Source: a phage
Length of the DNA: 64,000 bases
Reading direction: 5' to 3' (one strand)
NCBI GenBank assembly: GCA_019326865.1
Contig: GCA_019326865.1_4101.1
Made by a program: the position numbers and the translations under genes. The notes beneath the pieces were generated by a model. That model saw only the letters and a list, made by a program, of their open reading frames with translations, did no database searches and was not told the origin of the DNA. Below, in pieces: positions 7,621-64,000 of the stretch (the stretch's first letter is position 1; each line of letters starts with the position of its first letter).

Positions 7621-9126
7621 ATGGATAATTTTTTCAGTACTGAAACTGTCACCGTTCCTAATGGTTATGTATATACGTCACATACTGGTGCAAAATATGT
7701 ATTTCTTGAAGGATTCTGGTTTAATGACAGCAACATGTTAATGGTAGACCCTAGAAAATACCCATCCATGTACGCAAGTGCTCGTCAACAAATTGTCGAG
7801 CATAATCTAGCCTCAAATGAATATAAGATTGGTAAAAAATATATTGTTGAAGGTAAAGAGTGTACATTTATTGGTGAAAACCGTTTCAAAACAAAAGATG
7901 GAATTCTGCTGTCTGAAAATGAAATCATCACAGAATTAATGGCAGATGATCATCGTGTATATAACGTTTCAAAAGAAACACTCCAAAAAGAATGGAATGC
8001 ATTAAAATTTTACATTCTTCCTCCCTATGCTGATGATATATCAATTCCAGCAGGTATGGAAATTAGTGGTTTTAAGTTTGTTCCAAAGAATCACCGTTTT
8101 GTCGATATGAAATCAGGCAGACCAGTTGATCCAGCAATGACCCGCAAGCTATCCGATGAAGGCATACGTATTGCTCGTCAGTTAGCTTCAAAAAACAAAC
8201 TAATTCCAATCAAATCAACTTTAGTTCAAGGTAATACACGTTGTGAGTGGAATGGTAAAGACTTTTGCGATAACGATGGTAATGTGGTAATTCCAGAACA
8301 AAATGCACATGCAATTATTAAGGCATATCAGCAATTTGTTAATGATAACCCAAGTGATTTTCCTACATTGACGGGCGAACAAGACCACAGTGAACAACGT
8401 TTTGGTTCAGGTGAAAAGCCACAACAATCAACACAACCTGTTAAACAGCCTGTATTTGCAACCAAAGAATCAATCAATGAAGCAGACGAAGAAATTGAAG
8501 AATTTGAAAGTATTACAGTACCTGATGGTTATAGAATGACTTCTTCTAAAGGAAAAACATACACTAAGAAAAACAACTTGTGGTATGATATTGACAGCAA
8601 AAAGCAACTTAACACTAGTGCTTCTAAAAGTGTTGAAAGAGCAGCCCAACGTGATATTTTCCGTCATAACAACTCTGGTGCTATGAAAATTGGAACAAAA
8701 GTTAAATCCAAACAAGGTAAAGAATATTCTTATGTTGGTGGTGACCGATTCATTAGTGCTGATGGTAAATTTATTCCGAAAGCAACCGCAGCTAAATTAC
8801 TTGCTAAGTACAATGACGAGAAAGAAGATGTAAAACCAGATAATTCTAGTACTGATCAAATTCAATCAAAAGAAGAACCTAGGAAAGAACCAGAATCTGA
8901 ACAAAAACCAGACGAAGTTTCTGGTTCAGAAACTAAATCTGAAACAATTGCTGGTGATGACGTACAATCATTAGCTTCTAAAATCAAAGAGTCACCTTAT
9001 GCTAAAAAAATCACAGTTCTTTTAACTCGTGGTGATGAGGTTTCTCTACTTGCTGCTGATATTCTACTTTCAGGCAAAAAGGATGAAACAGTGCAAATTT
9101 TAAAATCATTAAATAATAATGATTGA
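7621..9126 (+). CDS. hypothetical protein with internal duplicated domain
   Basis: Two copies of motif (T)VPxGYxxTSxxGxxY at N-terminus and mid-protein; ORF length. Confidence 0.5.
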   Translation: MDNFFSTETVTVPNGYVYTSHTGAKYVFLEGFWFNDSNMLMVDPRKYPSMYASARQQIVEHNLASNEYKIGKKYIVEGKECTFIGENRFKTKDGILLSENEIITELMADDHRVYNVSKETLQKEWNALKFYILPPYADDISIPAGMEISGFKFVPKNHRFVDMKSGRPVDPAMTRKLSDEGIRIARQLASKNKLIPIKSTLVQGNTRCEWNGKDFCDNDGNVVIPEQNAHAIIKAYQQFVNDNPSDFPTLTGEQDHSEQRFGSGEKPQQSTQPVKQPVFATKESINEADEEIEEFESITVPDGYRMTSSKGKTYTKKNNLWYDIDSKKQLNTSASKSVERAAQRDIFRHNNSGAMKIGTKVKSKQGKEYSYVGGDRFISADGKFIPKATAAKLLAKYNDEKEDVKPDNSSTDQIQSKEEPRKEPESEQKPDEVSGSETKSETIAGDDVQSLASKIKESPYAKKITVLLTRGDEVSLLAADILLSGKKDETVQILKSLNNND

Positions 9127-14086: not shown

Positions 14087-14116
14087 GTGAGACAACTCAC
14101 AAAAATATGATATAAT
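14087..14116 (+). promoter_or_regulatory. promoter (GTGAGACAAC-N11-TGaTATAAT class)
   Basis: Extended -10 TGATATAAT at 14108-14116; upstream GTGAGACAAC box recurs with identical spacing at 63017. Confidence 0.55.
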
Positions 14117-14151: not shown

Positions 14152-14397
14152 ATGGAACAAGAAAATAATCAAATTCAACTAACCCTTCTAGACCTAATCA
14201 ATGCAGCAAAAATCATGGAAGCTGCTGTTGCCCGAAATACATTTAAAGTTGAAGAACTCGTGGATGTTTCCCCAGTTGTCGCCAAATTTGTTTCTTTTGC
14301 AAATGAAGCACTTGAAGATATTAAAGCTCAAGAAGACGCTGCTAAAGAAGAATCTGAATCACAAGATATTAAAGCTCAAGAAGATAAAGGAGAATAA
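14152..14397 (+). CDS. small acidic hypothetical protein
   Basis: ATG with RBS ggagag 9 nt upstream (listed ORF begins at 14122); C-terminal DIKAQED repeats. Confidence 0.5.
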   Translation: MEQENNQIQLTLLDLINAAKIMEAAVARNTFKVEELVDVSPVVAKFVSFANEALEDIKAQEDAAKEESESQDIKAQEDKGE

Positions 14398-16615: not shown

Positions 16616-18886
16616 TTATCTAATTGTTACCAATGTTCTTCCGTCGAAACGTACATCAGGAGTTGAAGGTATACTGAACACTACGTTAGTGCCGTTAAAC
16701 GTCACGCTATCGACCTCAACACGAGTATAGACCCCAGGACTAACCTGTTCCTGTATCTCTGCTGTGACGATGTTTGAGGCTGTTACAGTAAGGGTGTAGT
16801 AATTACCACTTAATACCCAAGATGAAATGGTAAATGCATCGGTTCTTACTGAACCTGAACCAATTGGAACCCATTGACCTTGAACTTTTTGCATTGAAGT
16901 ACGCTCGGTATTGGAGTATGCAATCATACCATCAACACCGACAGAGTTATCAATAGTAGCTAGTACTGGTAATTGAATACCATATCTATTGAAACGTGTT
17001 CTAATAGTTCCATTATCATAGATACTTACATCAGCATAATCACCCATTGAAAGTTTCAAATCTGAATCAACTAATTGCATTGTACTTTGATTAGTAGGGC
17101 TTTCTAACGTAATTATTCCATTTGCCAATAAGCTTAAGTTTTTAAATTTATTCGAAACACCATTAAATGTCGTATTAGCATTGAAAGTACTCGTGCCATT
17201 AACTACTATTGTGTTTTCTGCGGCTGCACCTAATATAGTATTACTTTGAACAATCAAATTACCACTTGTAGTAATATTAGTAGCTGTAGTATCACCATTT
17301 AATTTTGTATTAGCATTGAAAGTACTAGTACTATTAACTACTAATGTGTTTGTAGCGTTGTCACCTAATATAGTATCACTTTGAACATTCAAATTACCAC
17401 TTGCAGTAATATTAGTTGCTGTAGTATCACCATTTAATCTACTTGTACCATCAACTACAATATTACTATTAAATTTTGTATTAGCTTTAAAAGTACTAGT
17501 ACTATTAACTACTAACGTGTTTGCTGCGGTGTCACCTAATATTGTATTGCTTTGAACATTCAAATTACCACTTGCAGTAATGTTACTAGCTGAAGTATCA
17601 CCAATTAATCTACTTGTACCATCAACTACGATATTACCATGAAAATCGCTTTCACCGTTTTTAAATTCAACTTGTACTGAATACATAGAACTAAATGAAA
17701 TTATATTACTACTTGCACTTATACCAACATTAGTATTAGTTGGATTATCGAAGTGTAATATTGGAGTTAATGCTGGTGTTGTTGTTGTTTGATAGAGTGT
17801 TAGTGATGAGTTGTTAATTCTCACACGTTCATTTCCAGCAGTACTAAATCCAATAGCATCATCAGCAGGATGAAAAATACCAGTATTAGTATCAGACCAT
17901 TTATCAGGATCATTTCCAGGATTACTTGTTGGGTCGAATGGCTTATTATTAAATGCAATCGCTGGGGCAGAAGCACTCCCATATATAACACCAAAACGCC
18001 CAGACCCTATTGTACCGTCATCGTACATTGAATCGCCTGTTCTACGTAAACATTCAATTACAACATTATCTATGGAAGTTTGAACTGTACCAGCATTAGT
18101 TCTGAATTGGCGATTATTTGCAATCATAATAGTGTTATCATATAACACAGAAGCTGCTGAAATACTTGTTCTAGATTGGCGAAGGCGTATGTTTTTATCT
18201 TCAGTAATAATAATCCAGTCACCATCAGATAGTGCTGTTTGATTCATTGGTACACCGGAAGCAAACGGCTTAGTTAAATCATCATCAGTTACCAAATTAA
18301 CAAGTCCACTATGTCCCTCACTAGGGATAGAAGTTGAAATAATTCTCGCAAAAGCGTATGTTACTAGCTTTTCACCCGATATATTTGGGTTAGAATCAAC
18401 ATAATATAAAATTTCAACCCAATTCCCTTGCCCAGTTGGGTTGGTTGGAGTAAATGTAACAGGGCTTGTTTTTGGTTTATTCGCTTCAAAATGTGCTTGG
18501 GCGGCATCCATAATACCACGCACAACATAATAATCACCACTAAGTGATGATGATGGTGCAGGTAGTGGGCTTTGGGCTAACGGTGGGTCAATATCATCTG
18601 GAATTGGATTATATGTACCAACAAACTGTAAACCGCTAGTTACTGAGTCTGGTAATTGAGATGTGAGAAGTTTACCATTTGCATCTAAGTTAGCGAAACG
18701 CCTATATGCCATTGAACCATCTTCAAAATCCAGAACGCCCTCAAACGATTTCCATTCTTTATTGTATCTAATCATCCCTGATCTTATTACATCAGCGGTT
18801 TCTTTTGATGGTGCTTTTGGTAATTCTAAAAAAGATTTACTATCAATAATTACACCACCATCACCTCTAATTCGATTTATACTCAT
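16616..18886 (-). CDS. tail fibre protein with three tandem ~57-aa repeats
   Basis: 756-aa ORF; repeat NIVVDGTSRLxGDTxAxNITASGNLNVQSxTILGD...VVNSTSTFxANTK x3; S/T/N-rich. Confidence 0.65.
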   Translation of the reverse strand: MSINRIRGDGGVIIDSKSFLELPKAPSKETADVIRSGMIRYNKEWKSFEGVLDFEDGSMAYRRFANLDANGKLLTSQLPDSVTSGLQFVGTYNPIPDDIDPPLAQSPLPAPSSSLSGDYYVVRGIMDAAQAHFEANKPKTSPVTFTPTNPTGQGNWVEILYYVDSNPNISGEKLVTYAFARIISTSIPSEGHSGLVNLVTDDDLTKPFASGVPMNQTALSDGDWIIITEDKNIRLRQSRTSISAASVLYDNTIMIANNRQFRTNAGTVQTSIDNVVIECLRRTGDSMYDDGTIGSGRFGVIYGSASAPAIAFNNKPFDPTSNPGNDPDKWSDTNTGIFHPADDAIGFSTAGNERVRINNSSLTLYQTTTTPALTPILHFDNPTNTNVGISASSNIISFSSMYSVQVEFKNGESDFHGNIVVDGTSRLIGDTSASNITASGNLNVQSNTILGDTAANTLVVNSTSTFKANTKFNSNIVVDGTSRLNGDTTATNITASGNLNVQSDTILGDNATNTLVVNSTSTFNANTKLNGDTTATNITTSGNLIVQSNTILGAAAENTIVVNGTSTFNANTTFNGVSNKFKNLSLLANGIITLESPTNQSTMQLVDSDLKLSMGDYADVSIYDNGTIRTRFNRYGIQLPVLATIDNSVGVDGMIAYSNTERTSMQKVQGQWVPIGSGSVRTDAFTISSWVLSGNYYTLTVTASNIVTAEIQEQVSPGVYTRVEVDSVTFNGTNVVFSIPSTPDVRFDGRTLVTIR
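17150..17660 (-). repeat. in-frame tandem repeat (~171 bp x3) inside fibre gene
   Basis: Near-identical DNA units visible by eye; approximate boundaries. Confidence 0.6.
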
Positions 18887-19815: not shown

Positions 19816-22800
19816 TTAAGCAGTACGTTGAGCAATAAACATATCTGCTACTGAACTTACACCATCATAAATTACCTGATAGATAGTTACAGAGTTTGCA
19901 GTTTTGTTAAGTGTTCCATCAACTACAGCATATGTACCATCGGTAGTAAAGTTTCTATTACCAGTTGCATCTTGTTTAACATAAATGTATACTGACGATG
20001 CTTTACCACCACCAATTAGACCAGTAATAGGTGCTAGTGTTGTATCTTGATCAAGTGTGATAAAGTATACGTTGCTAGTCCCGTCAGGTGTCCAAGTACC
20101 AGATGGTGCAATAACAGAAGAAGTTACTTGATTTGGGATAACATCATATTTTTTGGTAGTTACTTTTGTCGTAGTGAAGTCTGCGTTGGTTGTAGATAAA
20201 TGTCCTGTTACAGTTACACCTTTGTCAAATACCGCATTTTCTTTGAAAGAAGATGTTGCATTAACAGTTAATGTATCAGAATCAGCATCACCTAACACAA
20301 CACTGCCATTTGCTGTCATTAAACCAGTAACAGTTAGCGTACCACCGATTGTTGCTTCACCAATTACAGATGCACTAGCAAGTGTAGCTGCACTAGATGT
20401 TGTAATAGTGGTAACAGTAGCGTCTTCAAGTGTGATGTTTGATGCTGTTAATTTACCATCAACCGTTAGGCTACCAGTAACATTTGCACCCGCTGACATG
20501 GTTACTGCTCCACCAAATGAACCTGTGGTAGTAACTTCAAGTGTATTACCTTTAAGTAATTTAGTTGCAGTTATATTTTCACCAGCAGTAATACTAGTAC
20601 CAGCAGCAACACCATTGGTTGCAGTTAGGGATTTAACGGATACATCAGAGTTTGATTGGTTAAGTGTAGCGTTTAGAGTGCCTGTTACAGTGAAGTCACC
20701 GTTGTTAACTACGTTACCGTTGATTGTTAAGTTATTATTTTTAGAACCAACATCACCGATGGTTGCAGATTTAGAAATCAATTCTGCACCAGATGTAATG
20801 TTACCTGCGGCACTAATGGTGTTAGCTGCATTAACTGCATAAGGTTCAATAGTTTGTCCACTAACATCGATATCAGCATTAATACCACCATCTACACGCA
20901 AAGAACCAGCAATGTAAGTGTTAGGGAAAATTTGAACAGTTTCTGTGTGTTCACCAACCTGTGTACCAATAATAACATTTGATCCAGTTTTTACTAAACC
21001 TTCAGATGTTATTGCACCCACAGTTGTTGTACCAGTAACGTCTAGTCTGCCACCAACTGTAGCGTTATTAGTTACTTTTAACGCAACATCTTCACCATTG
21101 ATAGTCATTGATGGTACAGATGCGTTTCCAGTAACATCTAGTGTTCCACCAATAGTTGCATTACCATCAGAATGTAAAGTTTTTGTAACAGAAAGACTGT
21201 TTGCAATTACATCCGCACCAGTCAAATCCAATGCACCTGGTGTTAATGTACCAGTAATGTTAACATTATTATCAAAGGTTGCTGCACCAGTAACATCTAG
21301 GGTAGAGCTAAATGTACCAGAAGTTGCAGAGATTGCACCAGATTCAAGTGAACCAACAGTGGTTTTTCCAGTTACACCTAGTGTACCGCCAACTGTTCCA
21401 TTTGTTGTAACTTCTAGTGTTCCAGTACTTAGATCTTTTGCTGTCACTTTGCCAGATGCGTTAATGGTTGTTGTTGTAACACCACCACTTAGAGTGCTTG
21501 CCCCAGTAACACTGAGTGTTTTTGCTGCACTAACGCTGTTTACAGTAAGATCAGCACCTGATAGGTCTAATCCACCTTCAGGAATAAAATTACCCTTAAC
21601 TGTTAGCTGTTGAACAGTACTGTCACCAGTGACATCTAGTGTAGAAGCAGTTAGACCACCATTCAGACTTGTTTCCCCAGTAACATCTAGTGTAGTTGTT
21701 ACAGTTGCACTGTTAAGAGTGGAGATACCGGAAATATTAGCACTTTGTGCAGTGATTGAGCCTTTATCAACTTGTACATCACCAGAAACAACTTTAATAC
21801 CACCAGCACTAACTGTTAGTTTTTCAGCAGTGTTCAAAGTACTTGAAATTGTTGTTGCACCAGTTAAGGTTGTAGTTCCAGCTACACTCATGTTTCCAGA
21901 GATAGATGGATTGCCTGTAATGTCACCAGTAGTGAGAACCAATTCAGTACCTACAGTAGTAGAACCAGTACTTTCTAATGTTACACCGACAATATTTGCA
22001 GATTTAAGGTCAATGGAGCCATCAACAGTCAAGTTGCCATGTACTGTTGCATCACCGAGTGAATTTAATGATTTCACAGAAACATCAGTTTTACTAAGGT
22101 CAATTACACCAGCAGTAAGTGTTCCAGATACTGCCAAATCACCAGTAATTGCTGTATTTTTCGTAATAGATACAGTTTCTGTTCCTGACGTAATTGAGCC
22201 AACAGTAAGTACACCACCAATGGTTGCATTGTTAGTTACAGTTAACGCTGTTTCTTCACCAGATAGTGTTAAAGAAATACCATTCATTTCACCAGTAATA
22301 TTTGCAGATGCCGCAGATATATCGCCAGCAACTACCGCATTTGTTGCGTTTAGAGTTGTTGTAGCAATTTCAGTACTTTTCACTTTAGGAAGTGCGTTGA
22401 TACCATCTTTACTATTAACTGTAATAATACCAGAACTTGTTAGAGATTTAACAGAAACATCTGCACCACTTAAGTTTACTGTTCCAGAAACAACTAGATC
22501 GCCACCAATATTAGCACCTTCTGTTGTAGTGATTGATTTTGCATTAACTTCAGTTTGGCTCAAATCAATTGTACCAGGTGATACAGTTCCAGAAACAGTA
22601 AGATTACCAGTAATGGTGGTATCATTAGAAATAGATACACCATCATCATTGCTAATTGTTGGGGTTTCAATAGTAACAGCTTTAACTTTACCTGAAGAAG
22701 TCATATCAGCAACAGTTGATGTACCAGTAACCTTTAGATTAGTAATATTTGCAGTAGTTGAACCAAGTGTAGTAATCGTACCATCAGTACTTTCTAGTTT

Positions 22801-25317
22801 AGGAAGAACACTGGCAATAGAAGATTCATTACTAACAATTGCACCAGTACTGGTTAGCGATTTTGCAGTTACATCAGCATTAGTAAGATCAACAGTTCCA
22901 TTAACGGTTAGATCTCCCCCGACTGTTGCACCAGCAGTAGTAGTAATTGAATTAGCATTAACATCTGCTTTAGTTAGATCGATTGAACCTGGAGTGATAG
23001 AGCCACTTACTGTTAGATCGCCAGTTACTTTTGTATTATTAGCAATTGTAATTCCATTTTCATTGGAAATATTAGGAGTCACCAATGAAGGTGTAGTAGT
23101 TTCGCCAGATACAGTTAATGTTGTACCAACTAATACACTTGAGCTTGTGTAAACACTTGATAGATTAGATGGTCCAGTTACGTGAAGTTCATCTGCATTA
23201 GCAGTTGTTACAGTTGCAGTTGTACTTTTAAGTACTGGTAGTACGTTTTCGGACACACTATCATTACTTTTAATAACACCAGAAGTAGTAAGTGATTTAA
23301 CATTAAGTTCGGCTTCTGATAAATCAAAAGAACCTTTAACTACTAGGTCACCACCAACTGTTGCACCAGCAGTAGTAGTAATTGAATTAGCATTAAGGTC
23401 GGCAGCACTTAAATCTAGTGAACCAACAGTTAAGCTACCAGTGATATCAACATTTTCTGTAAAGTTTGTATTACCACTAATAGTTGGGGCAGTTAAACTC
23501 GTTGCAGTGATATTAGTACCTTTGATTGTTTCACCACTTAATGTACCACTAGCAGTGATAGTTGGTGCGGTAACTTCGGTAGATGCACTAATTGTTGGTG
23601 CGGAAACCGAAGTTGTACCAGTAATAACACCAGAACTTACTGAACCAGCGGATAATGCACCAGAAAGAGTTGCAGTTGTTCCAGTAATATCACCAGTAAC
23701 AGTTAGTGCTCCACCAACAGTAGTATCACCTGTACTTTCCAAAGTTGCACCTTTGACATGTTCGGCTGCCACAACTGATTTTGGTGTTAAATCTTGTCCA
23801 CTAACGTCAACGGTTAAACCAGTTACTTTACCAGTGAAATCAACATCATTAAGAATTGCCTTACCACCAACTTGTAGGAATGGTGTACTTGGGTCTTGTG
23901 TTTCGTTACCTGTAATTGTTAGATAATCTAATTTGTTTAGACCATTACCAGTAATACCATATGTTGATAGTGATGCATTGCCAAATGTTGCAGTTTTAAG
24001 AACTTTCAATGTAGCTGGAGAAACCAACTCAGATTGAACTTCATTCGGTAAAATAACAGTTGGTCGTTGTTCTGGTGTAGTATATGCAAAACCGAGTTTA
24101 ACCGCTGGGTCTTGACTATTTTTACCTAAACTGATAGATTTGAAAGTTGCAGTACCGTTTAAACCAGTAATATTAGAACCTAGTGTAACACCACCCACCA
24201 ATGAAGTAGTTCCTGATACATTCAATGTGGTTGCATTAATATCATCCAACTGGAATTCGCCACCAAGAAGACCAGAAACATTAATGTTATTAAAATTAGC
24301 TGTGCCAGTACTTTCAATATTTGGGATAGTTGCAGTACCAGTAACTTCAAAATCAGCAACTTTAGTTTTACCTTTTTTTACTTCTAGAAGTGGTGTGTCT
24401 GGTGATTGAGTATCGTTACCAGAAACAGTTAGATAATCTAATTTGTTTAGACCATTACCAGTAATGCCATAGGTTGGCAATGATGCATTACCAAATGTTG
24501 CAGATGTCAAAACAGTCAATTTTGCTGGTGACATTAGTTCAGATTGAATTTCGTTTTGTAGAATTACAGTAGGACGCTTATCAGGAGCACTATAAGGGAA
24601 ACTTAGTCTAAAGGTTTGTGATTCAGAGTTAGATCCAATACGTATGTCTTTAAATGTAGCAGTGCTATTAATACCAGTTACATTAGCACCAAAAGTTACA
24701 GAACCTTTTTGGTTAGATGCACCAGTAACGTTCAATGTTTCAGCATTCAAATCAGAAAGATTAAACTCACCGCCCAGTGTACCATTAATGTTTACATCGT
24801 TGAATTCAGCAGTACCAGTACTAGTAATATCAGTTGCAGACACAGTTGTGATTTCTGCGGAATTAGCAGTAATTTTATCAAAAGCAGCAGTTGTGCCAAC
24901 ATCAGCAGTTAAGTTACCTTTAAGTGTTGTTACTCCATCAACTTCTAAGCTTTTTACTTTAGTTTCTTGTAGTGCTGTTGAACCCGCAGTTTGTGTCAAA
25001 TTACCACCAACTGACATAGTACCGTTGAATGTAGCATTTGCATTGATTGTTGCTGTATCAGAATCACCATCTGCACTACCGATAGTAGTGTTACCTTTAA
25101 CATCAAGACCACCACTTAATGTTGCTTTTCCAGCAACATCTAATGTGGATGTAATATTGGCAGTTTCGGTTTCAATGGCAGTAAAAGTTGCATTTGTGAA
25201 AGATATACTCCCATTTACAGTTAGGTTATTCTTGAATACAGCATTCCCTTTGACTAAAAGATCCTTACCAACCGTACCAGTACCAGTAATATCCAAGTCA
25301 GTTTTTATTGAGTACAT
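19816..25317 (-). CDS. giant fibrous tail fibre/adhesin protein (1833 aa, T/S/G/N-rich, internally duplicated)
   Basis: Low-complexity beta-rich composition; ~170-aa segment duplicated near N-terminus. Confidence 0.65.
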   Translation of the reverse strand: MYSIKTDLDITGTGTVGKDLLVKGNAVFKNNLTVNGSISFTNATFTAIETETANITSTLDVAGKATLSGGLDVKGNTTIGSADGDSDTATINANATFNGTMSVGGNLTQTAGSTALQETKVKSLEVDGVTTLKGNLTADVGTTAAFDKITANSAEITTVSATDITSTGTAEFNDVNINGTLGGEFNLSDLNAETLNVTGASNQKGSVTFGANVTGINSTATFKDIRIGSNSESQTFRLSFPYSAPDKRPTVILQNEIQSELMSPAKLTVLTSATFGNASLPTYGITGNGLNKLDYLTVSGNDTQSPDTPLLEVKKGKTKVADFEVTGTATIPNIESTGTANFNNINVSGLLGGEFQLDDINATTLNVSGTTSLVGGVTLGSNITGLNGTATFKSISLGKNSQDPAVKLGFAYTTPEQRPTVILPNEVQSELVSPATLKVLKTATFGNASLSTYGITGNGLNKLDYLTITGNETQDPSTPFLQVGGKAILNDVDFTGKVTGLTVDVSGQDLTPKSVVAAEHVKGATLESTGDTTVGGALTVTGDITGTTATLSGALSAGSVSSGVITGTTSVSAPTISASTEVTAPTITASGTLSGETIKGTNITATSLTAPTISGNTNFTENVDITGSLTVGSLDLSAADLNANSITTTAGATVGGDLVVKGSFDLSEAELNVKSLTTSGVIKSNDSVSENVLPVLKSTTATVTTANADELHVTGPSNLSSVYTSSSVLVGTTLTVSGETTTPSLVTPNISNENGITIANNTKVTGDLTVSGSITPGSIDLTKADVNANSITTTAGATVGGDLTVNGTVDLTNADVTAKSLTSTGAIVSNESSIASVLPKLESTDGTITTLGSTTANITNLKVTGTSTVADMTSSGKVKAVTIETPTISNDDGVSISNDTTITGNLTVSGTVSPGTIDLSQTEVNAKSITTTEGANIGGDLVVSGTVNLSGADVSVKSLTSSGIITVNSKDGINALPKVKSTEIATTTLNATNAVVAGDISAASANITGEMNGISLTLSGEETALTVTNNATIGGVLTVGSITSGTETVSITKNTAITGDLAVSGTLTAGVIDLSKTDVSVKSLNSLGDATVHGNLTVDGSIDLKSANIVGVTLESTGSTTVGTELVLTTGDITGNPSISGNMSVAGTTTLTGATTISSTLNTAEKLTVSAGGIKVVSGDVQVDKGSITAQSANISGISTLNSATVTTTLDVTGETSLNGGLTASTLDVTGDSTVQQLTVKGNFIPEGGLDLSGADLTVNSVSAAKTLSVTGASTLSGGVTTTTINASGKVTAKDLSTGTLEVTTNGTVGGTLGVTGKTTVGSLESGAISATSGTFSSTLDVTGAATFDNNVNITGTLTPGALDLTGADVIANSLSVTKTLHSDGNATIGGTLDVTGNASVPSMTINGEDVALKVTNNATVGGRLDVTGTTTVGAITSEGLVKTGSNVIIGTQVGEHTETVQIFPNTYIAGSLRVDGGINADIDVSGQTIEPYAVNAANTISAAGNITSGAELISKSATIGDVGSKNNNLTINGNVVNNGDFTVTGTLNATLNQSNSDVSVKSLTATNGVAAGTSITAGENITATKLLKGNTLEVTTTGSFGGAVTMSAGANVTGSLTVDGKLTASNITLEDATVTTITTSSAATLASASVIGEATIGGTLTVTGLMTANGSVVLGDADSDTLTVNATSSFKENAVFDKGVTVTGHLSTTNADFTTTKVTTKKYDVIPNQVTSSVIAPSGTWTPDGTSNVYFITLDQDTTLAPITGLIGGGKASSVYIYVKQDATGNRNFTTDGTYAVVDGTLNKTANSVTIYQVIYDGVSSVADMFIAQRTA
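23890..24910 (-). repeat. tandem duplication (~510 bp x2) within giant fibre gene
   Basis: e.g. agataatctaatttgtttagaccattaccagtaat at ~23921 and ~24431; approximate boundaries. Confidence 0.6.
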
Positions 25318-58313: not shown

Positions 58314-58401
58314 CGTGGGACAAATCACTTTTTAGTGCTATAATAACATTGATGGTACAAGGATTGTATCTATTGGATTTAAACATGGAGAGTTGAATAT
58401 A

Positions 58402-60267: not shown

Positions 60268-62415
60268 ATGCTAAACATTACACGTATATCAATGAGGAAC
60301 TTCTTTTCATTTGGGAACGCACCACAATCAATAGAATTGAATAGTTCTGATATTTCATTAGTTCTTGGGCAAAATAATGATGCAGTTATTGAAGGTGGTG
60401 ATAGCACTGGACGACGAAATGGAGTAGGGAAAAGTGCTATTATTCAAGGATTAGTTTTTGGCTTATTTGGGAAAAGTATTGGTAATGATATTAAAATTCC
60501 CAACCTAGTCAACAAAACTAATGGCAAAAATTGTGAAGTAGTTATAGAGTTTGAAAAAGATGGTGTGCAATATATAGTTGAGCGTGGGAGAAGTCCTACG
60601 TATTTCAATTTTATAACATTAGGAAAAGATAATAAGATTGAAGATGAATCGAGAGGTGAAAAAAAAGACACACAAGAAGATTTGAATGAAATTCTTGGAA
60701 TATCTCAATTATTATTTGAACATATTGTAGTTCTTAATGCGAACGTAGAACCGTTTTTGGCTTTATCATCTCAAAAACAACGTGATATGATAGAAGAACT
60801 TCTTGGAATAACACAGTTGACTGAAAAAGCTGAAATTCTAAAGGAGATGTACAAGGATACTAAACGTTTAGCCGAACAAGAAAAGTTCAAAAATGAAACT
60901 GTGGCTGCAAGCAATGAACGCATTCAAAAAAGTATTGAAGTACTTCAAGAACAGGCTAACCAATTTGAGATTGATAAAAGTAATAGAGTATCTAAGCTAA
61001 ATGAAGAGTTGAATATATATAAAACTTTAGATTTCAATGATCTCTACCAAGCTGCTGAAGAGAAAGAGAAAGCTCTTATTCATAACGCAAAGCGTGGTGA
61101 AATTGAACGCCGTGTACAAGAGTTGGCTTTAAAATATGATGCTTATGAACGTGAACTTGAAACGTCCAAACGAGTGTTAAATCTAAGCATTGATAATTTA
61201 AAAACGATTGATATTAGTTCGGAATTGGAAAATCACAAGGAGTTGGAAATATGGAAACAGTTAGAGGCTATTCTTAAAGAGAATAATAATCAAAAACGTT
61301 TCAAAGAACAAAAGCTCAACTCACTAAAAGTTGCGTTGAATGGATATAAATGTTCAATTAATACTGAAATCGATAAATTATCAACAGTTGAAAGCAGTAA
61401 ATGTCCACTTTGTATGTCTGATTTGGAACATAACGAACATACATCTTCAATTAAAGACAAAATTCAAAGTTCTATTAGTGATCTTCAAACCAAAATTGAT
61501 AGTTCTTCTTCAGAAATTGAAACATTACTTAAAGAAATTGAGAGTATTGAGATTTTTGATATGCCACCTAAACCAGTGACATACTATAATACACTTTCAG
61601 AAGCACAAATGCATGAACATAAGCTTCAAGAACTGATTAAAAAGAGCGAAGAAGAACCAATAAACATCTATGCTAACGAACTTATGTCATCATATGATGA
61701 ACTTAACTCATATGAACTAATGGAAGTACCAGATACATTAAACAAGTACGAAGTTAAAGAGATAGAAATGACCGTAAGCTCGTTATCACAGCAATTAGAA
61801 CGTGAATTGAAGACTACTAACACTTTTATTAGCCAAATTAACACCCTTAAGACAGATTCTTTAGTTACAATAGACTATAGTGACTATAATAATCTTGATA
61901 AAATGTCAAATCACCAAGATTTTTTGGTTAAATTACTATTGAACAAGGATTCTTATGTCCGTAAGCGTATTATTGAGCAAAATATCTCATATTTGAATAC
62001 ACGACTTCAGTATTATATCGATATGTGCGGTTCTGAGCACAATGTTGTGTTTTTGAATGATTTGAGTGTTGAAATTGAGAAAAGTGGGCAGTACTTTGAC
62101 TATAAACAGCTTAGTAGGGGTGAGCGTACAAGGGTAAACATCGCATTATCTTGTGCTTTCCGTGATACATATGAGTCATTATACCAAAGTATTAATATTC
62201 TTATCATTGATGAGATGATTGACCAAGGTCTTGACTCAAGTGGTGTTCTACGTGTGTGGTCTATCTTCCAAGATATGGCTGCTGTACGTGGTAAGAATGT
62301 TTATGCTATTTCCCACAGAGAAGAGTTACTTTCTAAGACTGAAAAAATCCTCAAAGTTGTTAAAGAGGACGGATTCAGTACTGTTGAATATGCAACTCTT
62401 GATGATGTTTTCTAA
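60268..62415 (+). CDS. Rad50/SbcC-like ATPase (gp46-like)
   Basis: Walker A GRRNGVGKSAI, zinc hook CPLC, long coiled-coil middle, signature LSRGERTRV, Walker B LIIDEMIDQGLD. Confidence 0.85.
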   Translation: MLNITRISMRNFFSFGNAPQSIELNSSDISLVLGQNNDAVIEGGDSTGRRNGVGKSAIIQGLVFGLFGKSIGNDIKIPNLVNKTNGKNCEVVIEFEKDGVQYIVERGRSPTYFNFITLGKDNKIEDESRGEKKDTQEDLNEILGISQLLFEHIVVLNANVEPFLALSSQKQRDMIEELLGITQLTEKAEILKEMYKDTKRLAEQEKFKNETVAASNERIQKSIEVLQEQANQFEIDKSNRVSKLNEELNIYKTLDFNDLYQAAEEKEKALIHNAKRGEIERRVQELALKYDAYERELETSKRVLNLSIDNLKTIDISSELENHKELEIWKQLEAILKENNNQKRFKEQKLNSLKVALNGYKCSINTEIDKLSTVESSKCPLCMSDLEHNEHTSSIKDKIQSSISDLQTKIDSSSSEIETLLKEIESIEIFDMPPKPVTYYNTLSEAQMHEHKLQELIKKSEEEPINIYANELMSSYDELNSYELMEVPDTLNKYEVKEIEMTVSSLSQQLERELKTTNTFISQINTLKTDSLVTIDYSDYNNLDKMSNHQDFLVKLLLNKDSYVRKRIIEQNISYLNTRLQYYIDMCGSEHNVVFLNDLSVEIEKSGQYFDYKQLSRGERTRVNIALSCAFRDTYESLYQSINILIIDEMIDQGLDSSGVLRVWSIFQDMAAVRGKNVYAISHREELLSKTEKILKVVKEDGFSTVEYATLDDVF

Positions 62416-62427
62416 TTAAAAGATAAA

Positions 62428-62450
62428 GGGAGCCTTAGCTCCCTTTTTTT
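62428..62450. terminator. bidirectional intrinsic terminator (gggagc-ctta-gctccc + T7)
   Basis: Perfect 6-bp stem between convergent genes; stop codon of minus gene lies in loop. Confidence 0.75.
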
Positions 62451-62926
62451 ACATCAACCATATTTAATTTACCGTCCTTAATCAGCTTTCTAGCTTGTTT
62501 TGCACGAGTAGAAGTGTTACTGCCAGGGACAACTCCGAACCCTTCCAGAATCTCGTTTTGCTGCGTTGCTGGGAGCCTTTTAAATTTATTAGTATCCACT
62601 GTTAGTGCCGTGTGATGTATAACTTGCTCTTCTGGTGGAATATTATTGTTCTTTTCAAGGTAGTCAGCAAGGTTGCGTAGTACTTCATGTAATGGCTTAT
62701 CTGTTAAATGACTAAGACAGCGTTTAAATGAATTTGCAACCCTTCCTTCCCATCCATTCACCTCATTTTGAAGAACCTGTCTACAATGTTGATTTCCACC
62801 ATGATAGTGATCCAGTACTGGTTTAGTTATTTTTATGCCTATGATGGGGTCAATGCCATTTTGTTTCTTTAGCAATTCATTTCGATAGTTTGCAGCATCC
62901 TTACTATCTTTTAATCTTTTTTTCAT
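62435..62926 (-). CDS. endonuclease VII-like / His-Me finger nuclease (gp49-like)
   Basis: Motif LDHYHGGNQHC...NEVNG resembles T4 endo VII LDHDHELNG region as recalled; length ~160 aa. Confidence 0.4.
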   Translation of the reverse strand: MKKRLKDSKDAANYRNELLKKQNGIDPIIGIKITKPVLDHYHGGNQHCRQVLQNEVNGWEGRVANSFKRCLSHLTDKPLHEVLRNLADYLEKNNNIPPEEQVIHHTALTVDTNKFKRLPATQQNEILEGFGVVPGSNTSTRAKQARKLIKDGKLNMVDVKKGS

Positions 62927-62956
62927 AATTCCTCACCAAACTATTTGTCATCACAA

Positions 62957-62964
62957 TATTTATA
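62957..62964 (-). promoter_or_regulatory. T4-late-type promoter motif TATAAATA (minus strand)
   Basis: Exact TATAAATA ~30 nt upstream of start of 62435..62926, followed by RBS gaggaa. Confidence 0.45.
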
Positions 62965-63016
62965 GATTAGTTATTTGCAATATTTTAAGTACTTAATTAA
63001 TATTTTATAAAAAAAT

Positions 63017-63046
63017 GTGAGACAACTTTAAAGTTTGTGCTATAAT
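63017..63046 (+). promoter_or_regulatory. promoter (GTGAGACAAC-N11-TGcTATAAT class)
   Basis: Same upstream box and spacing as promoter at 14087; extended -10 TGCTATAAT at 63038-63046. Confidence 0.55.
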
Positions 63047-63052
63047 ATTTGT

Positions 63053-63525
63053 TGTAGTAATGACAATCCTGTTGAATGCAGAAATGCATATAAATTAGAA
63101 CCTGATCCTATCGAAAATGTAGATGGCAGATGAGCAGTTCAACAGTGCGATGAGCAAAAGAAACCCGTTAGATGTGGGCATAGTTTGAACCCCTCACGGC
63201 AATGCGGCTCAATAAAGAACTCCGATAAGCATACAGAGAGTTCCTAGATAGACATATAAGGATCGCACCTTACCAGATTTGCTAAGGGAGTTTATTAAGT
63301 GATTTTTAATAAACAGCCTGAAGTTTGATTGTATAGACTTTCAGGTGAGTGTCAGGATGATTAAGACTGACGACCGTTGCATATGACCGTGATAGGGAGA
63401 AACCGAGCAACCCGCTTCCGTTTGCGATTGATCTTTTTACAATATAGATCCGTCCAAAATTCACGATACAATAAATGCTGAAACCATCAGCGTCAAGAAA
63501 TAGAGACTTCATTGTCTCTTTTTTA
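63053..63525 (+). ncRNA. candidate structured non-coding RNA (~470 nt), class unassigned
   Basis: Promoter at 63017-63046, intrinsic terminator agagac-ttcatt-gtctct + T6 at 63502-63525; GC-richer than surroundings by eye; no plausible plus-strand ORF. Confidence 0.45.
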
Positions 63526-63740
63526 TTGTCTTCATTCCCCTGCGGGGGGATGAAAATGTCCTCAACAAATCCCGTCAAGTATTAAATCTTTTAAAGTTCT
63601 TTATAATTAATTTAATGAAATGAATATGAGTTACGTAGTAACGAATATTCTTCAGCTAACGAATGAAATGAGTTAGATGAATCCAATAATATTAAAATTA
63701 ATTCTTCCATAATTCAAATAATTCTGTAATTTAATGAAAA

Positions 63741-63766
63741 AAAACCAGCAACAATGTGCTGGTTAT
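63741..63766 (-). terminator. intrinsic terminator (ccagca-acaatg-tgctgg; T8 on minus strand)
   Basis: Perfect 6-bp stem; minus-strand T-run; just downstream of 63773..63982 stop. Confidence 0.65.
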
Positions 63767-63772
63767 ATGGGA

Positions 63773-63982
63773 TTAGTGCTTCTCGTTTTGTTTTTTAATT
63801 TTTTTATTAAAAGACTTAACTAACAAGTCTCTATCTATTAATGGCATATTAAGAAGTGTTCCGTAATCAATATTATCCATATATACAGAACACTCCATCA
63901 GTGCATTTTTGATTTCGGACTTATTCAGTTCTATCTCCTTTAAAACTTCTTGTATTTCTTCAGGAGATGACTGGAGAAGCAT
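63773..63982 (-). CDS. small hypothetical protein
   Basis: 69-aa ORF with in-frame upstream stop; own terminator. Confidence 0.4.
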   Translation of the reverse strand: MLLQSSPEEIQEVLKEIELNKSEIKNALMECSVYMDNIDYGTLLNMPLIDRDLLVKSFNKKIKKQNEKH

Positions 63983-64000
63983 TACTCGAAAAAATGACTA

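Follow-up and report, generated by a model that had tools for sequence, protein, structure and literature searches.

The intergenic gap at positions 62927–63772 of the phage DNA studied here raises the question of whether its 846 base pairs (bp), bordered on both sides by minus-strand genes, encode a structured RNA. The DNA is a stretch of 64,000 nucleotides (nt) from contig GCA_019326865.1_4101.1 (hereafter the window) and comes from an Asteriusvirus, one of the Rak2-like jumbo myoviruses; the closest record, that of Escherichia phage UE-S1, is 97.8% identical over the gap. An earlier note on this sequence had pointed to a gap of about 850 bp holding a plus-strand promoter, a strong intrinsic terminator and no plausible plus-strand open reading frame (ORF), and had proposed a structured RNA of unassigned class. 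The gap was found as described. We report that it contains a member of a real and apparently undescribed family of non-coding RNAs of ~450–530 nt with at least five pseudoknot-type contacts.

Homologues of the element were detected by blastn at 314 places in 73 phage records, with 3–6 places per genome. All of these records are Rak2-like jumbo phages, and the copies of one genome are on the same strand. Structure was examined in 38 copies sharing less than 95% identity, which were aligned in two halves by plain MAFFT and not fitted to any structure; counts per copy given below refer to this set. RNAalifold returned a poor consensus from a full-length MAFFT alignment because of variable hairpins and pseudoknots, and a pairwise covariation scan together with hand-built helices was used instead. 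The helices derived by hand were then tested against 500 shuffles and slid controls. Over the 5′ domain (63062–63292), 84% of the cells were paired compared to 68.5% upon shuffling, and covariation amounted to 0.384 compared to 0.137 (as high in 0 of 500 shuffles; slid controls 0.05–0.11). For the 3′ domain (63314–63585) the values were 87.4% versus 71.8% of cells paired and a covariation of 0.443 versus 0.161 (again 0/500; slid controls 0.06–0.12). Because indels had misaligned helix P1, it was checked sequence by sequence, yielding 7.6 contiguous bp against 4.6 after shuffling, with 17 versions of the helix. More than 15 helices, long-range ones included, show compensatory changes. The covariation analysis across homologous loci that the earlier note had suggested thus gave a strong signal among 38 divergent copies.

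The constraint is strand-specific. Across the helices, 195 G.U pairs were counted compared to 59 A.C combinations, and the folding z-score was −3.3 for the plus strand but −1.8 for the minus strand. Therefore, the constrained molecule is the plus-strand RNA.

The covariation-tested 5′ domain spans 63069–63290 of the plus strand, on which all RNA features described here are located. It begins with P1 (63069–75/63139–45), the P2 hairpin with a GAAA loop (63076–89) and P3 (63102–12/63122–29) with the conserved loop GAAAAYGUA. These are followed by P4 (63151–55/63207–11), P5 with P5a (63165–68/63196–99), P6 (63217–22/63238–43), P7 (63257–61/63268–72) and the invariant sequence CUAAGGGAG (63282–90). 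The likewise tested 3′ domain (63317–63472) consists of Px (63317–26/63335–45), Py (63351–55/63367–71), Pz (63376–80/63407–11), Pw (63388–91/63462–65), Pv (63395–99/63415–19) and Pu (63421–24/63455–58). The nested helices with support are P1, P3, P4, P5/P5a, P6, P7, Px, Py, Pw, Pv, Pu and the terminator stem.

Superimposed on these are five supported crossing interactions. PKa (GCA/UGC, 63134–36/63146–48) straddles the 3′ strand of P1 and is paired in 100%, its middle pair occurring as UA in 17, AU in 11 and CG in 9 cases. PKb joins an AUG inside P4 to a CAU (63202–04/63253–55; 98% paired, GC26/AU11), and PKd links AGC in the P6 loop to GCU (63228–30/63281–83; 88% paired, GC21/UA5/AU4 and CG22/AU8/UG3). 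In PKc, the Px loop AUUGUA faces UACAAU (63328–33/63467–72), with 99.6% pairing and all six pairs changed on both sides; this contact could be intra- or intermolecular, i.e. a pseudoknot or a kissing interaction. The fifth is Pz, which crosses Pw and Pv; all three are 100% paired and show double changes.

Between the helices lie invariant or near-invariant junctions and loops (GAAAAYGUA, AUAAAG, GAUAGA, CUAAGGGAG, GACCGU, GAUAG.GAGAAAC and ACCCGCUU), which look like those typical of a defined tertiary core. The peripheral elements vary, and P5a exists in short and long forms. A mini-hairpin module of ~35 nt (..UUUUKUACAAKAWAG..CGUCCAAAAUU) follows CUAAGGGAG in some copies and lies in the Pu loop in others; it is present at both sites in copy B of phage EC22.5-2, and its positions differ among copies B, C and D of that genome (L008, L007 and L012). 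In the window, a specific insert of this kind occupies the Pu loop at 63430–63454. Judged from these placements, the module appears to behave like a movable peripheral element. A further hairpin, GCUGA/UCAGC, drawn in the register of the window just before the site 1 motif described below, was paired in 31.6% and was rejected as not conserved.

Could the region instead encode small proteins, as some GenBank records would have it? ORFs have been called here in several deposited genomes, and the window itself offers a 90-amino-acid ORF on the minus strand and plus-strand ORFs of 32–36 amino acids. The probability of this explanation is close to nil. From one homologue to another, the longest stop-free stretches change strand, frame and location, and no reading frame is conserved, in agreement with the earlier note; the 90-amino-acid ORF is reduced to 46 amino acids in the 92%-identical orthologue of EC22.5-2, indels are not multiples of three and substitutions are compensatory rather than codon-like. 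The mini-ORF GGGGGGAUG was considered as a leader peptide and rejected, its frame being shifted or its AUG lost between copies. Existing annotation is uneven: the UE-S1 record labels 158 nt of the RNA only as 'repeat_region', and PP886230, PQ390715, PQ330092, OR699282, OR699181-88 and others carry 2–4 'hypothetical proteins' over it. Such calls are probably spurious, and in several GenBank records they can now be recognised as lying over an RNA gene.

Next to be considered is whether the RNA belongs to a known class. The Rfam scan proposed in the earlier note was run and matched no family, either in the window or in five divergent homologues: Rfam 15 gave 0 matches to the whole window at the gathering threshold, nothing relevant to 62900–63800 at E ≤ 10 (including GOLLD, ROOL, HEARO, OLE, raiA, group I and II introns, 6S and riboswitches) and nothing relevant to the five homologues at E ≤ 5. 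ARAGORN detected neither transfer RNA (tRNA) nor transfer-messenger RNA (tmRNA) genes in the window. Bacterial RNase P RNA and tmRNA resemble the present RNA in their size of 350–450 nt, their several pseudoknots and invariant junctions and in being sometimes carried by phages; the RNase P and tmRNA models of Rfam matched neither the window nor the homologues. An RNase-P-like P4 pairing, AAUGCGG/CCGCUU (63201–07 with 63412–17), was rejected as uncompensated: AUGCGG, AUACGG and ACACGG all face an invariant partner, and column 63204 (G/A) covaries with 63253 in PKb. ACAGAGCAACCCGCUU bears a superficial resemblance to what is presumably CR-V of RNase P (ACAGAACCCGGCUUA). The earlier note had named a split or intron-containing coding gene as one case that would speak against a discrete RNA. 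Nothing of this kind was found: the element is intergenic and has its own promoter at all 38 copies, there are no exons and no conserved ORF, and the Intron_gpI model is without a match.

ORF-less transcripts have been reported from the distantly related Pseudomonas phage PA5oct, namely ncRNA002 with ~5% of phage reads in early and mid-infection and ncRNA004 with <0.1% of reads (PMC7318152). Compared to our family by means of an nhmmer profile, these two (L068, L069) gave an E-value of 0.52 at best, from a C-rich/G-rich hairpin alone, and no significant similarity to either was detected. A comparable hairpin, UUCCUUCCC-AAAC-GGGGAGGAAAU, is located at the 3′ end of PA5oct ncRNA004.

Transcription of the element can be assigned to a promoter at its 5′ edge. 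The sequence GTGAGACAAC-N-TGCTATAAT at 63017–63046 has 10 of 12 sigma-70 matches plus an extended −10 TG, and a promoter is located upstream of 38/38 homologues. Published analyses of phages CBB and GAP32 describe a 'divergent RpoD-like promoter' with the −35 sequence TGAAACG that is concentrated upstream of DNA-synthesis genes, and the promoter class of the window matches it (PMC5259590). In these terms, the promoter spans 63018–63046, with the box TGAGACAA at 63018–25 and the extended −10 element TGCTATAAT at 63038–46; the transcription start is predicted near 63053. On the plus strand of the window the class motif TG(A/G)GACAA-N13-TGNTATAAT occurs three times (14088, 58316 and 63018) compared to 0.41 expected, bearing out the likeness to a promoter at 14087 that the earlier note had remarked on. 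The promoter at 14088–14116 (TGAGACAAC..TGATATAAT, plus strand) precedes a protein-coding operon starting at 14153, while that at 58316–58344 (TGGGACAAA..TGCTATAAT, plus strand) is ~2 kb upstream of a 715-amino-acid recombination-nuclease ORF.

At the other end, the terminator foreseen in the earlier note is present as AGAGAC-TTCATT-GTCTCT-T5 within 63502–63525, in RNA terms an AGAGAC/GUCUCU stem plus U-tract. It is an optional insert, found in 22 of the 38 representatives; its stem covaries where present (98.5% paired), and 16/38 are gapped here. All copies continue into a module, M2 (63530–63579), which comprises in this order a pyrimidine arm, a CCCC-UGC-GGGG hairpin (63537–47), the invariant GGGGGGAUGAAA, CUCAACAAAUC and a motif that we call site 2, AUCCCGUCAAG (63569–79). 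In the C4/G6 hairpin of M2 only the 5′ arm has changed, always from C to U and with G.U pairs kept. This strand asymmetry argues for constraint on plus-strand RNA and implies that read-through transcripts matter.

The limits of 63017–63525 drawn in the earlier note therefore stand at the start but not at the end, where conservation and RNA-level constraint reach ~63580 and a further module extends to ~63700. We propose ~63580 as the end of the RNA and ~63700–63764 as that of the whole cassette. In sum, the idea of a structured RNA of unassigned class with its own promoter and terminator is supported by covariation, strand asymmetry and the lack of any Rfam match, and the 3–6 paralogues per genome, the heavy pseudoknotting, the optional terminator followed by a universal module and the longer cassette are features beyond what had been seen.

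Site 2 has a counterpart, site 1 (AUCAGCGUCAAG, 63486–63497), at the 3′ edge of the core directly before the terminator. Sites 1 and 2 (AYS..YKUCAR, direct) flank the terminator and the C4/G6 hairpin, and their nine compared positions are identical in 36/38 copies. Six versions of the pair exist among the copies, and paralogues of one genome differ. Identical within a copy despite differing between copies, the two sites therefore evolve in concert, copy by copy. A shared internal complementary partner for both sites was sought and not found, the best mean complementarity being 0.75, and closing helices for site 2 (GGAU/AUCC or GAUG/CGUC) were rejected as uncompensated in RaK2, 121Q_D and ACC variants.

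The matched sites invite an explanation at the level of DNA, in which the element would be a recombination or protein-binding site or the remnant of a mobile element, RNA structure being secondary, and a segment that can be excised would be bounded by sites 1 and 2 as recombination cores. Identity within and difference between copies resembles crossover sites because their overlap regions must match, and the single cassette in a bacterial assembly lies ~300 bp from a large serine recombinase gene. A role of this kind is nevertheless highly improbable: the helices accept G.U but not A.C, the changes in the M2 arm are strand-asymmetric, compensatory changes affect the many helices mentioned above, some of them long-range, and no such recombinase was seen next to copies in the lytic Rak2-like phages. 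Sites 1 and 2, moreover, differ by a conserved 1-nt indel and are therefore not simple target-site duplications.

A weightier alternative arises from the order of promoter, core, terminator and M2. The element could be a cis-acting leader cassette at the head of a transcription unit, in which the RNA, within the nascent transcript, controls read-through of the terminator and of others farther downstream, either by processive antitermination, as do HK022 put and EAR RNAs, or by riboswitch-like attenuation; M2 would then be a second, nut-like signal (hairpin plus CUCAACAAAUC). Presumably, the M2 hairpin and CUCAACAAAUC are loosely reminiscent of boxB/boxA. This possibility is serious, given that genes lie after most of the copies and that selection clearly acts on read-through into M2. 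A promoter stands immediately before each copy; 22/38 have the intrinsic terminator right after the core and then the RNA-constrained module; plus-strand genes, such as those for an ADP-ribosylglycohydrolase, a DNA methyltransferase and small ORFs, follow most copies; and the annotated UE-S1 genome is rich in intergenic terminators inside co-oriented gene blocks. HK022 put RNA and EAR RNA likewise lie directly downstream of a promoter, are present more than once in a phage genome and precede terminators and long operons.

On balance we regard such a leader as possible but rather doubtful. The copies adjacent to endonuclease VII, that of the window included, have no plus-strand gene downstream. 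With ~400 nt and five pseudoknot contacts the RNA exceeds known antitermination RNAs and riboswitch aptamers several-fold; compared to put/EAR it is ~6 times larger and pseudoknotted, one class of its paralogues is without a downstream operon, and there is no known sequence relation. Copies lacking the terminator retain the whole core, and site 2 and M2, being downstream of the terminator, are therefore unable to prevent its formation. As a class assignment, a riboswitch or cis-regulatory leader was not supported, the downstream genes differing between paralogues and the endonuclease-VII-adjacent class having only opposite-strand genes downstream.

The reading that we favour, and whose chances we put at about even, is that the RNA is a discrete folded molecule that acts in trans. 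Host RNA polymerase would transcribe it from near 63053; some transcripts would stop at the intrinsic terminator, giving ~470 nt, and the remainder would read through into M2 to ~63580, so that two forms of the RNA would exist. The pseudoknotted core would provide a binding pocket or an active site for a protein, a ligand or a nucleic acid during the replication phase, by analogy with the large ornate phage RNAs GOLLD and ROOL, and would not be the leader of a particular gene. We prefer this reading because the copy class of the window has no same-strand gene to regulate, because the core surpasses every known leader several-fold in size and is also more knotted, and because the invariant junctions look like a tertiary core. 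For the window copy and its orthologues in GAP32 and Munch, the downstream genes are on the opposite strand, and no plus-strand gene occurs before the next hairpin. The position of the terminator directly 3′ of the core and the covariation of its stem were also counted in favour of a stand-alone unit.

Several points weigh against a trans-acting molecule. Where the RNA starts, where it ends and how stable it is have been deduced from the sequence, and the RNA is without a known partner, ligand or catalytic activity. Most paralogues (the B, C and D types and the copies of CBB, BF and XbC2) precede same-strand genes. In the 16 of 38 copies that lack the terminator, the RNA would, unless processed, form the 5′ portion of an mRNA. 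Finally, M2 is constrained as RNA downstream of the terminator; read-through therefore matters, and this fits a cis-regulatory role as well.

A bolder version is that the family represents a new class of ribozyme or guide-dependent ribonucleoprotein, or an RNA-only multimer formed by kissing through PKc as in ROOL and GOLLD; we consider this unlikely, though worth stating. The two co-evolving GUCAR motifs would be the molecule's own processing or recognition sites, and the core would carry out cleavage, joining or some other reaction on RNA or DNA, each copy specifying the sites concerned. If the ribozyme, ribonucleoprotein or multimer reading were true, the family would constitute a new functional RNA machine and not another regulatory leader.

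Among known kinds, the large ornate RNAs of phages, to which GOLLD and ROOL belong, come closest, and the present RNA is a member of neither family. Like it, GOLLD and ROOL, which are Rfam families frequent in phages and prophages and for which cryo-electron microscopy structures have been described (bioRxiv 10.1101/2024.12.08.627333), are several hundred nt long, ORF-less and phage-borne, with many covarying helices and loop-loop contacts. They form multimers by intermolecular kissing, and the 6-bp PKc could be a contact of the same kind. In contrast, our RNA has no sequence or structure similarity to them and no match in Rfam at E ≤ 10, and it is carried by jumbo myoviruses of Enterobacterales, whereas GOLLD and ROOL occur in Firmicutes or lake metagenomes. 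Here, 3–6 paralogues per genome each have their own promoter, and the copies were not seen beside tRNA genes, the nearest tRNA gene in UE-S1 being ~12 kb away.

The number and placement of the copies bear on a further explanation. In the complete genome of EC22.5-2 four copies lie on one strand, spaced by 50–110 kb, and copy sites are syntenic across genera: one class is located beside endonuclease VII (window, UE-S1, GAP32), and another directly downstream of the phage sigma-factor gene (UE-S1, RaK2). Dispersed same-strand copies, 3–6 per genome, might mark replication origins, at which a structured RNA transcribed from the middle-type promoter would serve as primer in the manner of ColE1 RNA II or T4 oriF/oriG. 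The leading strand would be primed by an RNA-DNA hybrid persisting at the G6 run and in the AT-rich DNA of 63580–63630, and a genome of 350 kb would have several origins. The comparison has some appeal, since those systems also show a promoter-driven untranslated transcript of ~500 nt followed by a G-rich element and AT-rich DNA, T4 has several such origins per genome and the promoter here belongs to a replication-gene class, concentrated as it is upstream of the DNA-synthesis genes of CBB (PMC5259590). Furthermore, the invariant G-run is followed by DNA of 21–24% guanine plus cytosine (GC), the window copy lies beside genes of recombination and replication, namely those for a gp46/47-like nuclease and endonuclease VII, and these phages encode RNase H.

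However, the cumulative GC skew of EC22.5-2 tracks gene orientation and has no inflection at B, C and D (three of the four copies), skew in such phages following transcription, so that GC skew lends no support. T4-type origins need no structured RNA, and ColE1 RNA II is without a comparable pseudoknotted, sequence-invariant core, as is strongly conserved here. It would also be counter-productive for an intrinsic terminator to precede the proposed hybrid site. For these reasons we judge an origin function to be quite improbable.

The taxonomic range of the family is wide within its group. The phage records span Asteriusvirus, Mimasvirus (GAP32, CBB, XbC2), Eneladusvirus (Serratia phage BF) and Alcyoneusvirus (RaK2), and include related phages of Yersinia, Erwinia and Klebsiella as well as unclassified relatives such as Munch. 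This amounts to at least four named genera of 350-kb phages, with E. coli, Salmonella, Klebsiella, Yersinia, Erwinia, Pectobacterium and Xanthomonas as hosts. A search with the core pattern identified 49 loci in IMG/VR and 68 in metagenomes, many of them on contigs of 350–370 kb; on contigs with several copies the strand was always shared. Among 100,044 bacterial and archaeal species genomes there was one match.

This match (L070) is in Silvania hatchlandensis (NZ_JAMGZK010000045.1, a 185-kb contig, ~7700–8400, minus strand). The copy is a complete cassette with promoter, core, M2 and the module M3 described below, and in a 4-kb stretch no DNA other than that of the cassette aligns to known phages. 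The cassette is located ~300 bp downstream of the gene for a 703-amino-acid large serine recombinase, with genes for a DNA invertase and an ADP-ribosylglycohydrolase nearby.

RNAs of large size that combine many pseudoknots with invariant junctions are, to our knowledge, uncommon, and nearly all of those solved so far are ribozymes, ribonucleoprotein cores or self-assembling cages. Conservation across genera, the presence of 3–6 promoter-equipped copies and the fact that the element is the sole DNA-alignable stretch of a distant contig argue for an important role in jumbo phages. The hosts and several of the phages (121Q, PBECO4, phAPEC6, RaK2) are easily cultured, which makes the question directly testable. 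Our literature searches, whose coverage did not extend to a supplementary catalogue of 10,006 candidate phage RNAs (PMC10690425), yielded no description of the element, and it is unmentioned in the genome papers on CBB (PMC5259590) and UE-S1. Within the window, no second copy was detected by blastn, a repeat finder or the nhmmer profile; only the promoter recurs.

Base composition sets the RNA interval apart from its surroundings. Its GC content is 39.7%, compared to 34.7% in the window and the 21–24% of the flanking intergenic DNA. The earlier note had called the interval visibly GC-richer than the genome; this is clear relative to the flanks but only moderate relative to the window, 7.7% of equal-sized intervals of which reach the same value.

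Downstream of M2, an AT-rich spacer and module M3 occupy 63580–63700 and were read by eye. M3 contains the hairpins GUUAC-GUA-GUAAC (63630–42) and CUAAC-GAAUGAAAUGA-GUUAG (63656–76); the loop motif RAACGAAGUGAR is common to other genera. The stems differ between genera in a complementary manner, as judged by eye; in other genera a hairpin GA-CAUUC-GAA-GAAUG-GC, with the stem variants CAAUC/GAUUG and CAUAC/GUAUG, overlaps a perfect TTGACA. M3 is kept even where no plus-strand gene lies downstream. In many homologues, L031, L037 and L022 among them, site 2 is directly followed by a TATAAAT/ATAAAT-like sequence (in the window GTATTAAAT at 63580–63588). This sequence resembles the late-promoter motif of the T4 type described from CBB and GAP32 (PMC5259590), and a separate late transcript over M3 could start from it. 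Farther on, a distal hairpin, AACCAGCA..UGCUGGUU (63743–63764), was scored as a terminator for the minus strand only; it terminates the convergent minus-strand gene and may also form the outer end of plus-strand read-through transcripts. Hairpins homologous to it are found after the cassette in GAP32, in Munch and in copies from metagenomes.

The genes flanking the gap are both on the minus strand, that for endonuclease VII on the left (62435–62926) and a 69-amino-acid ORF on the right (63773–63982). Beside the endonuclease VII gene lies the 715-amino-acid recombination-nuclease ORF (60268–62415), and between these two convergent genes a bidirectional intrinsic terminator, AAAGGGAGC-CTTA-GCTCCCTTT, is located at 62425–62446. 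The interval 62400–64000 contains six terminator-like sites, compared to 0.8 expected. Elsewhere in the window, the repeat finder reported tandem and dispersed direct repeats with a periodicity of 135–510 bp at 17155–17631 and 20243–25071.

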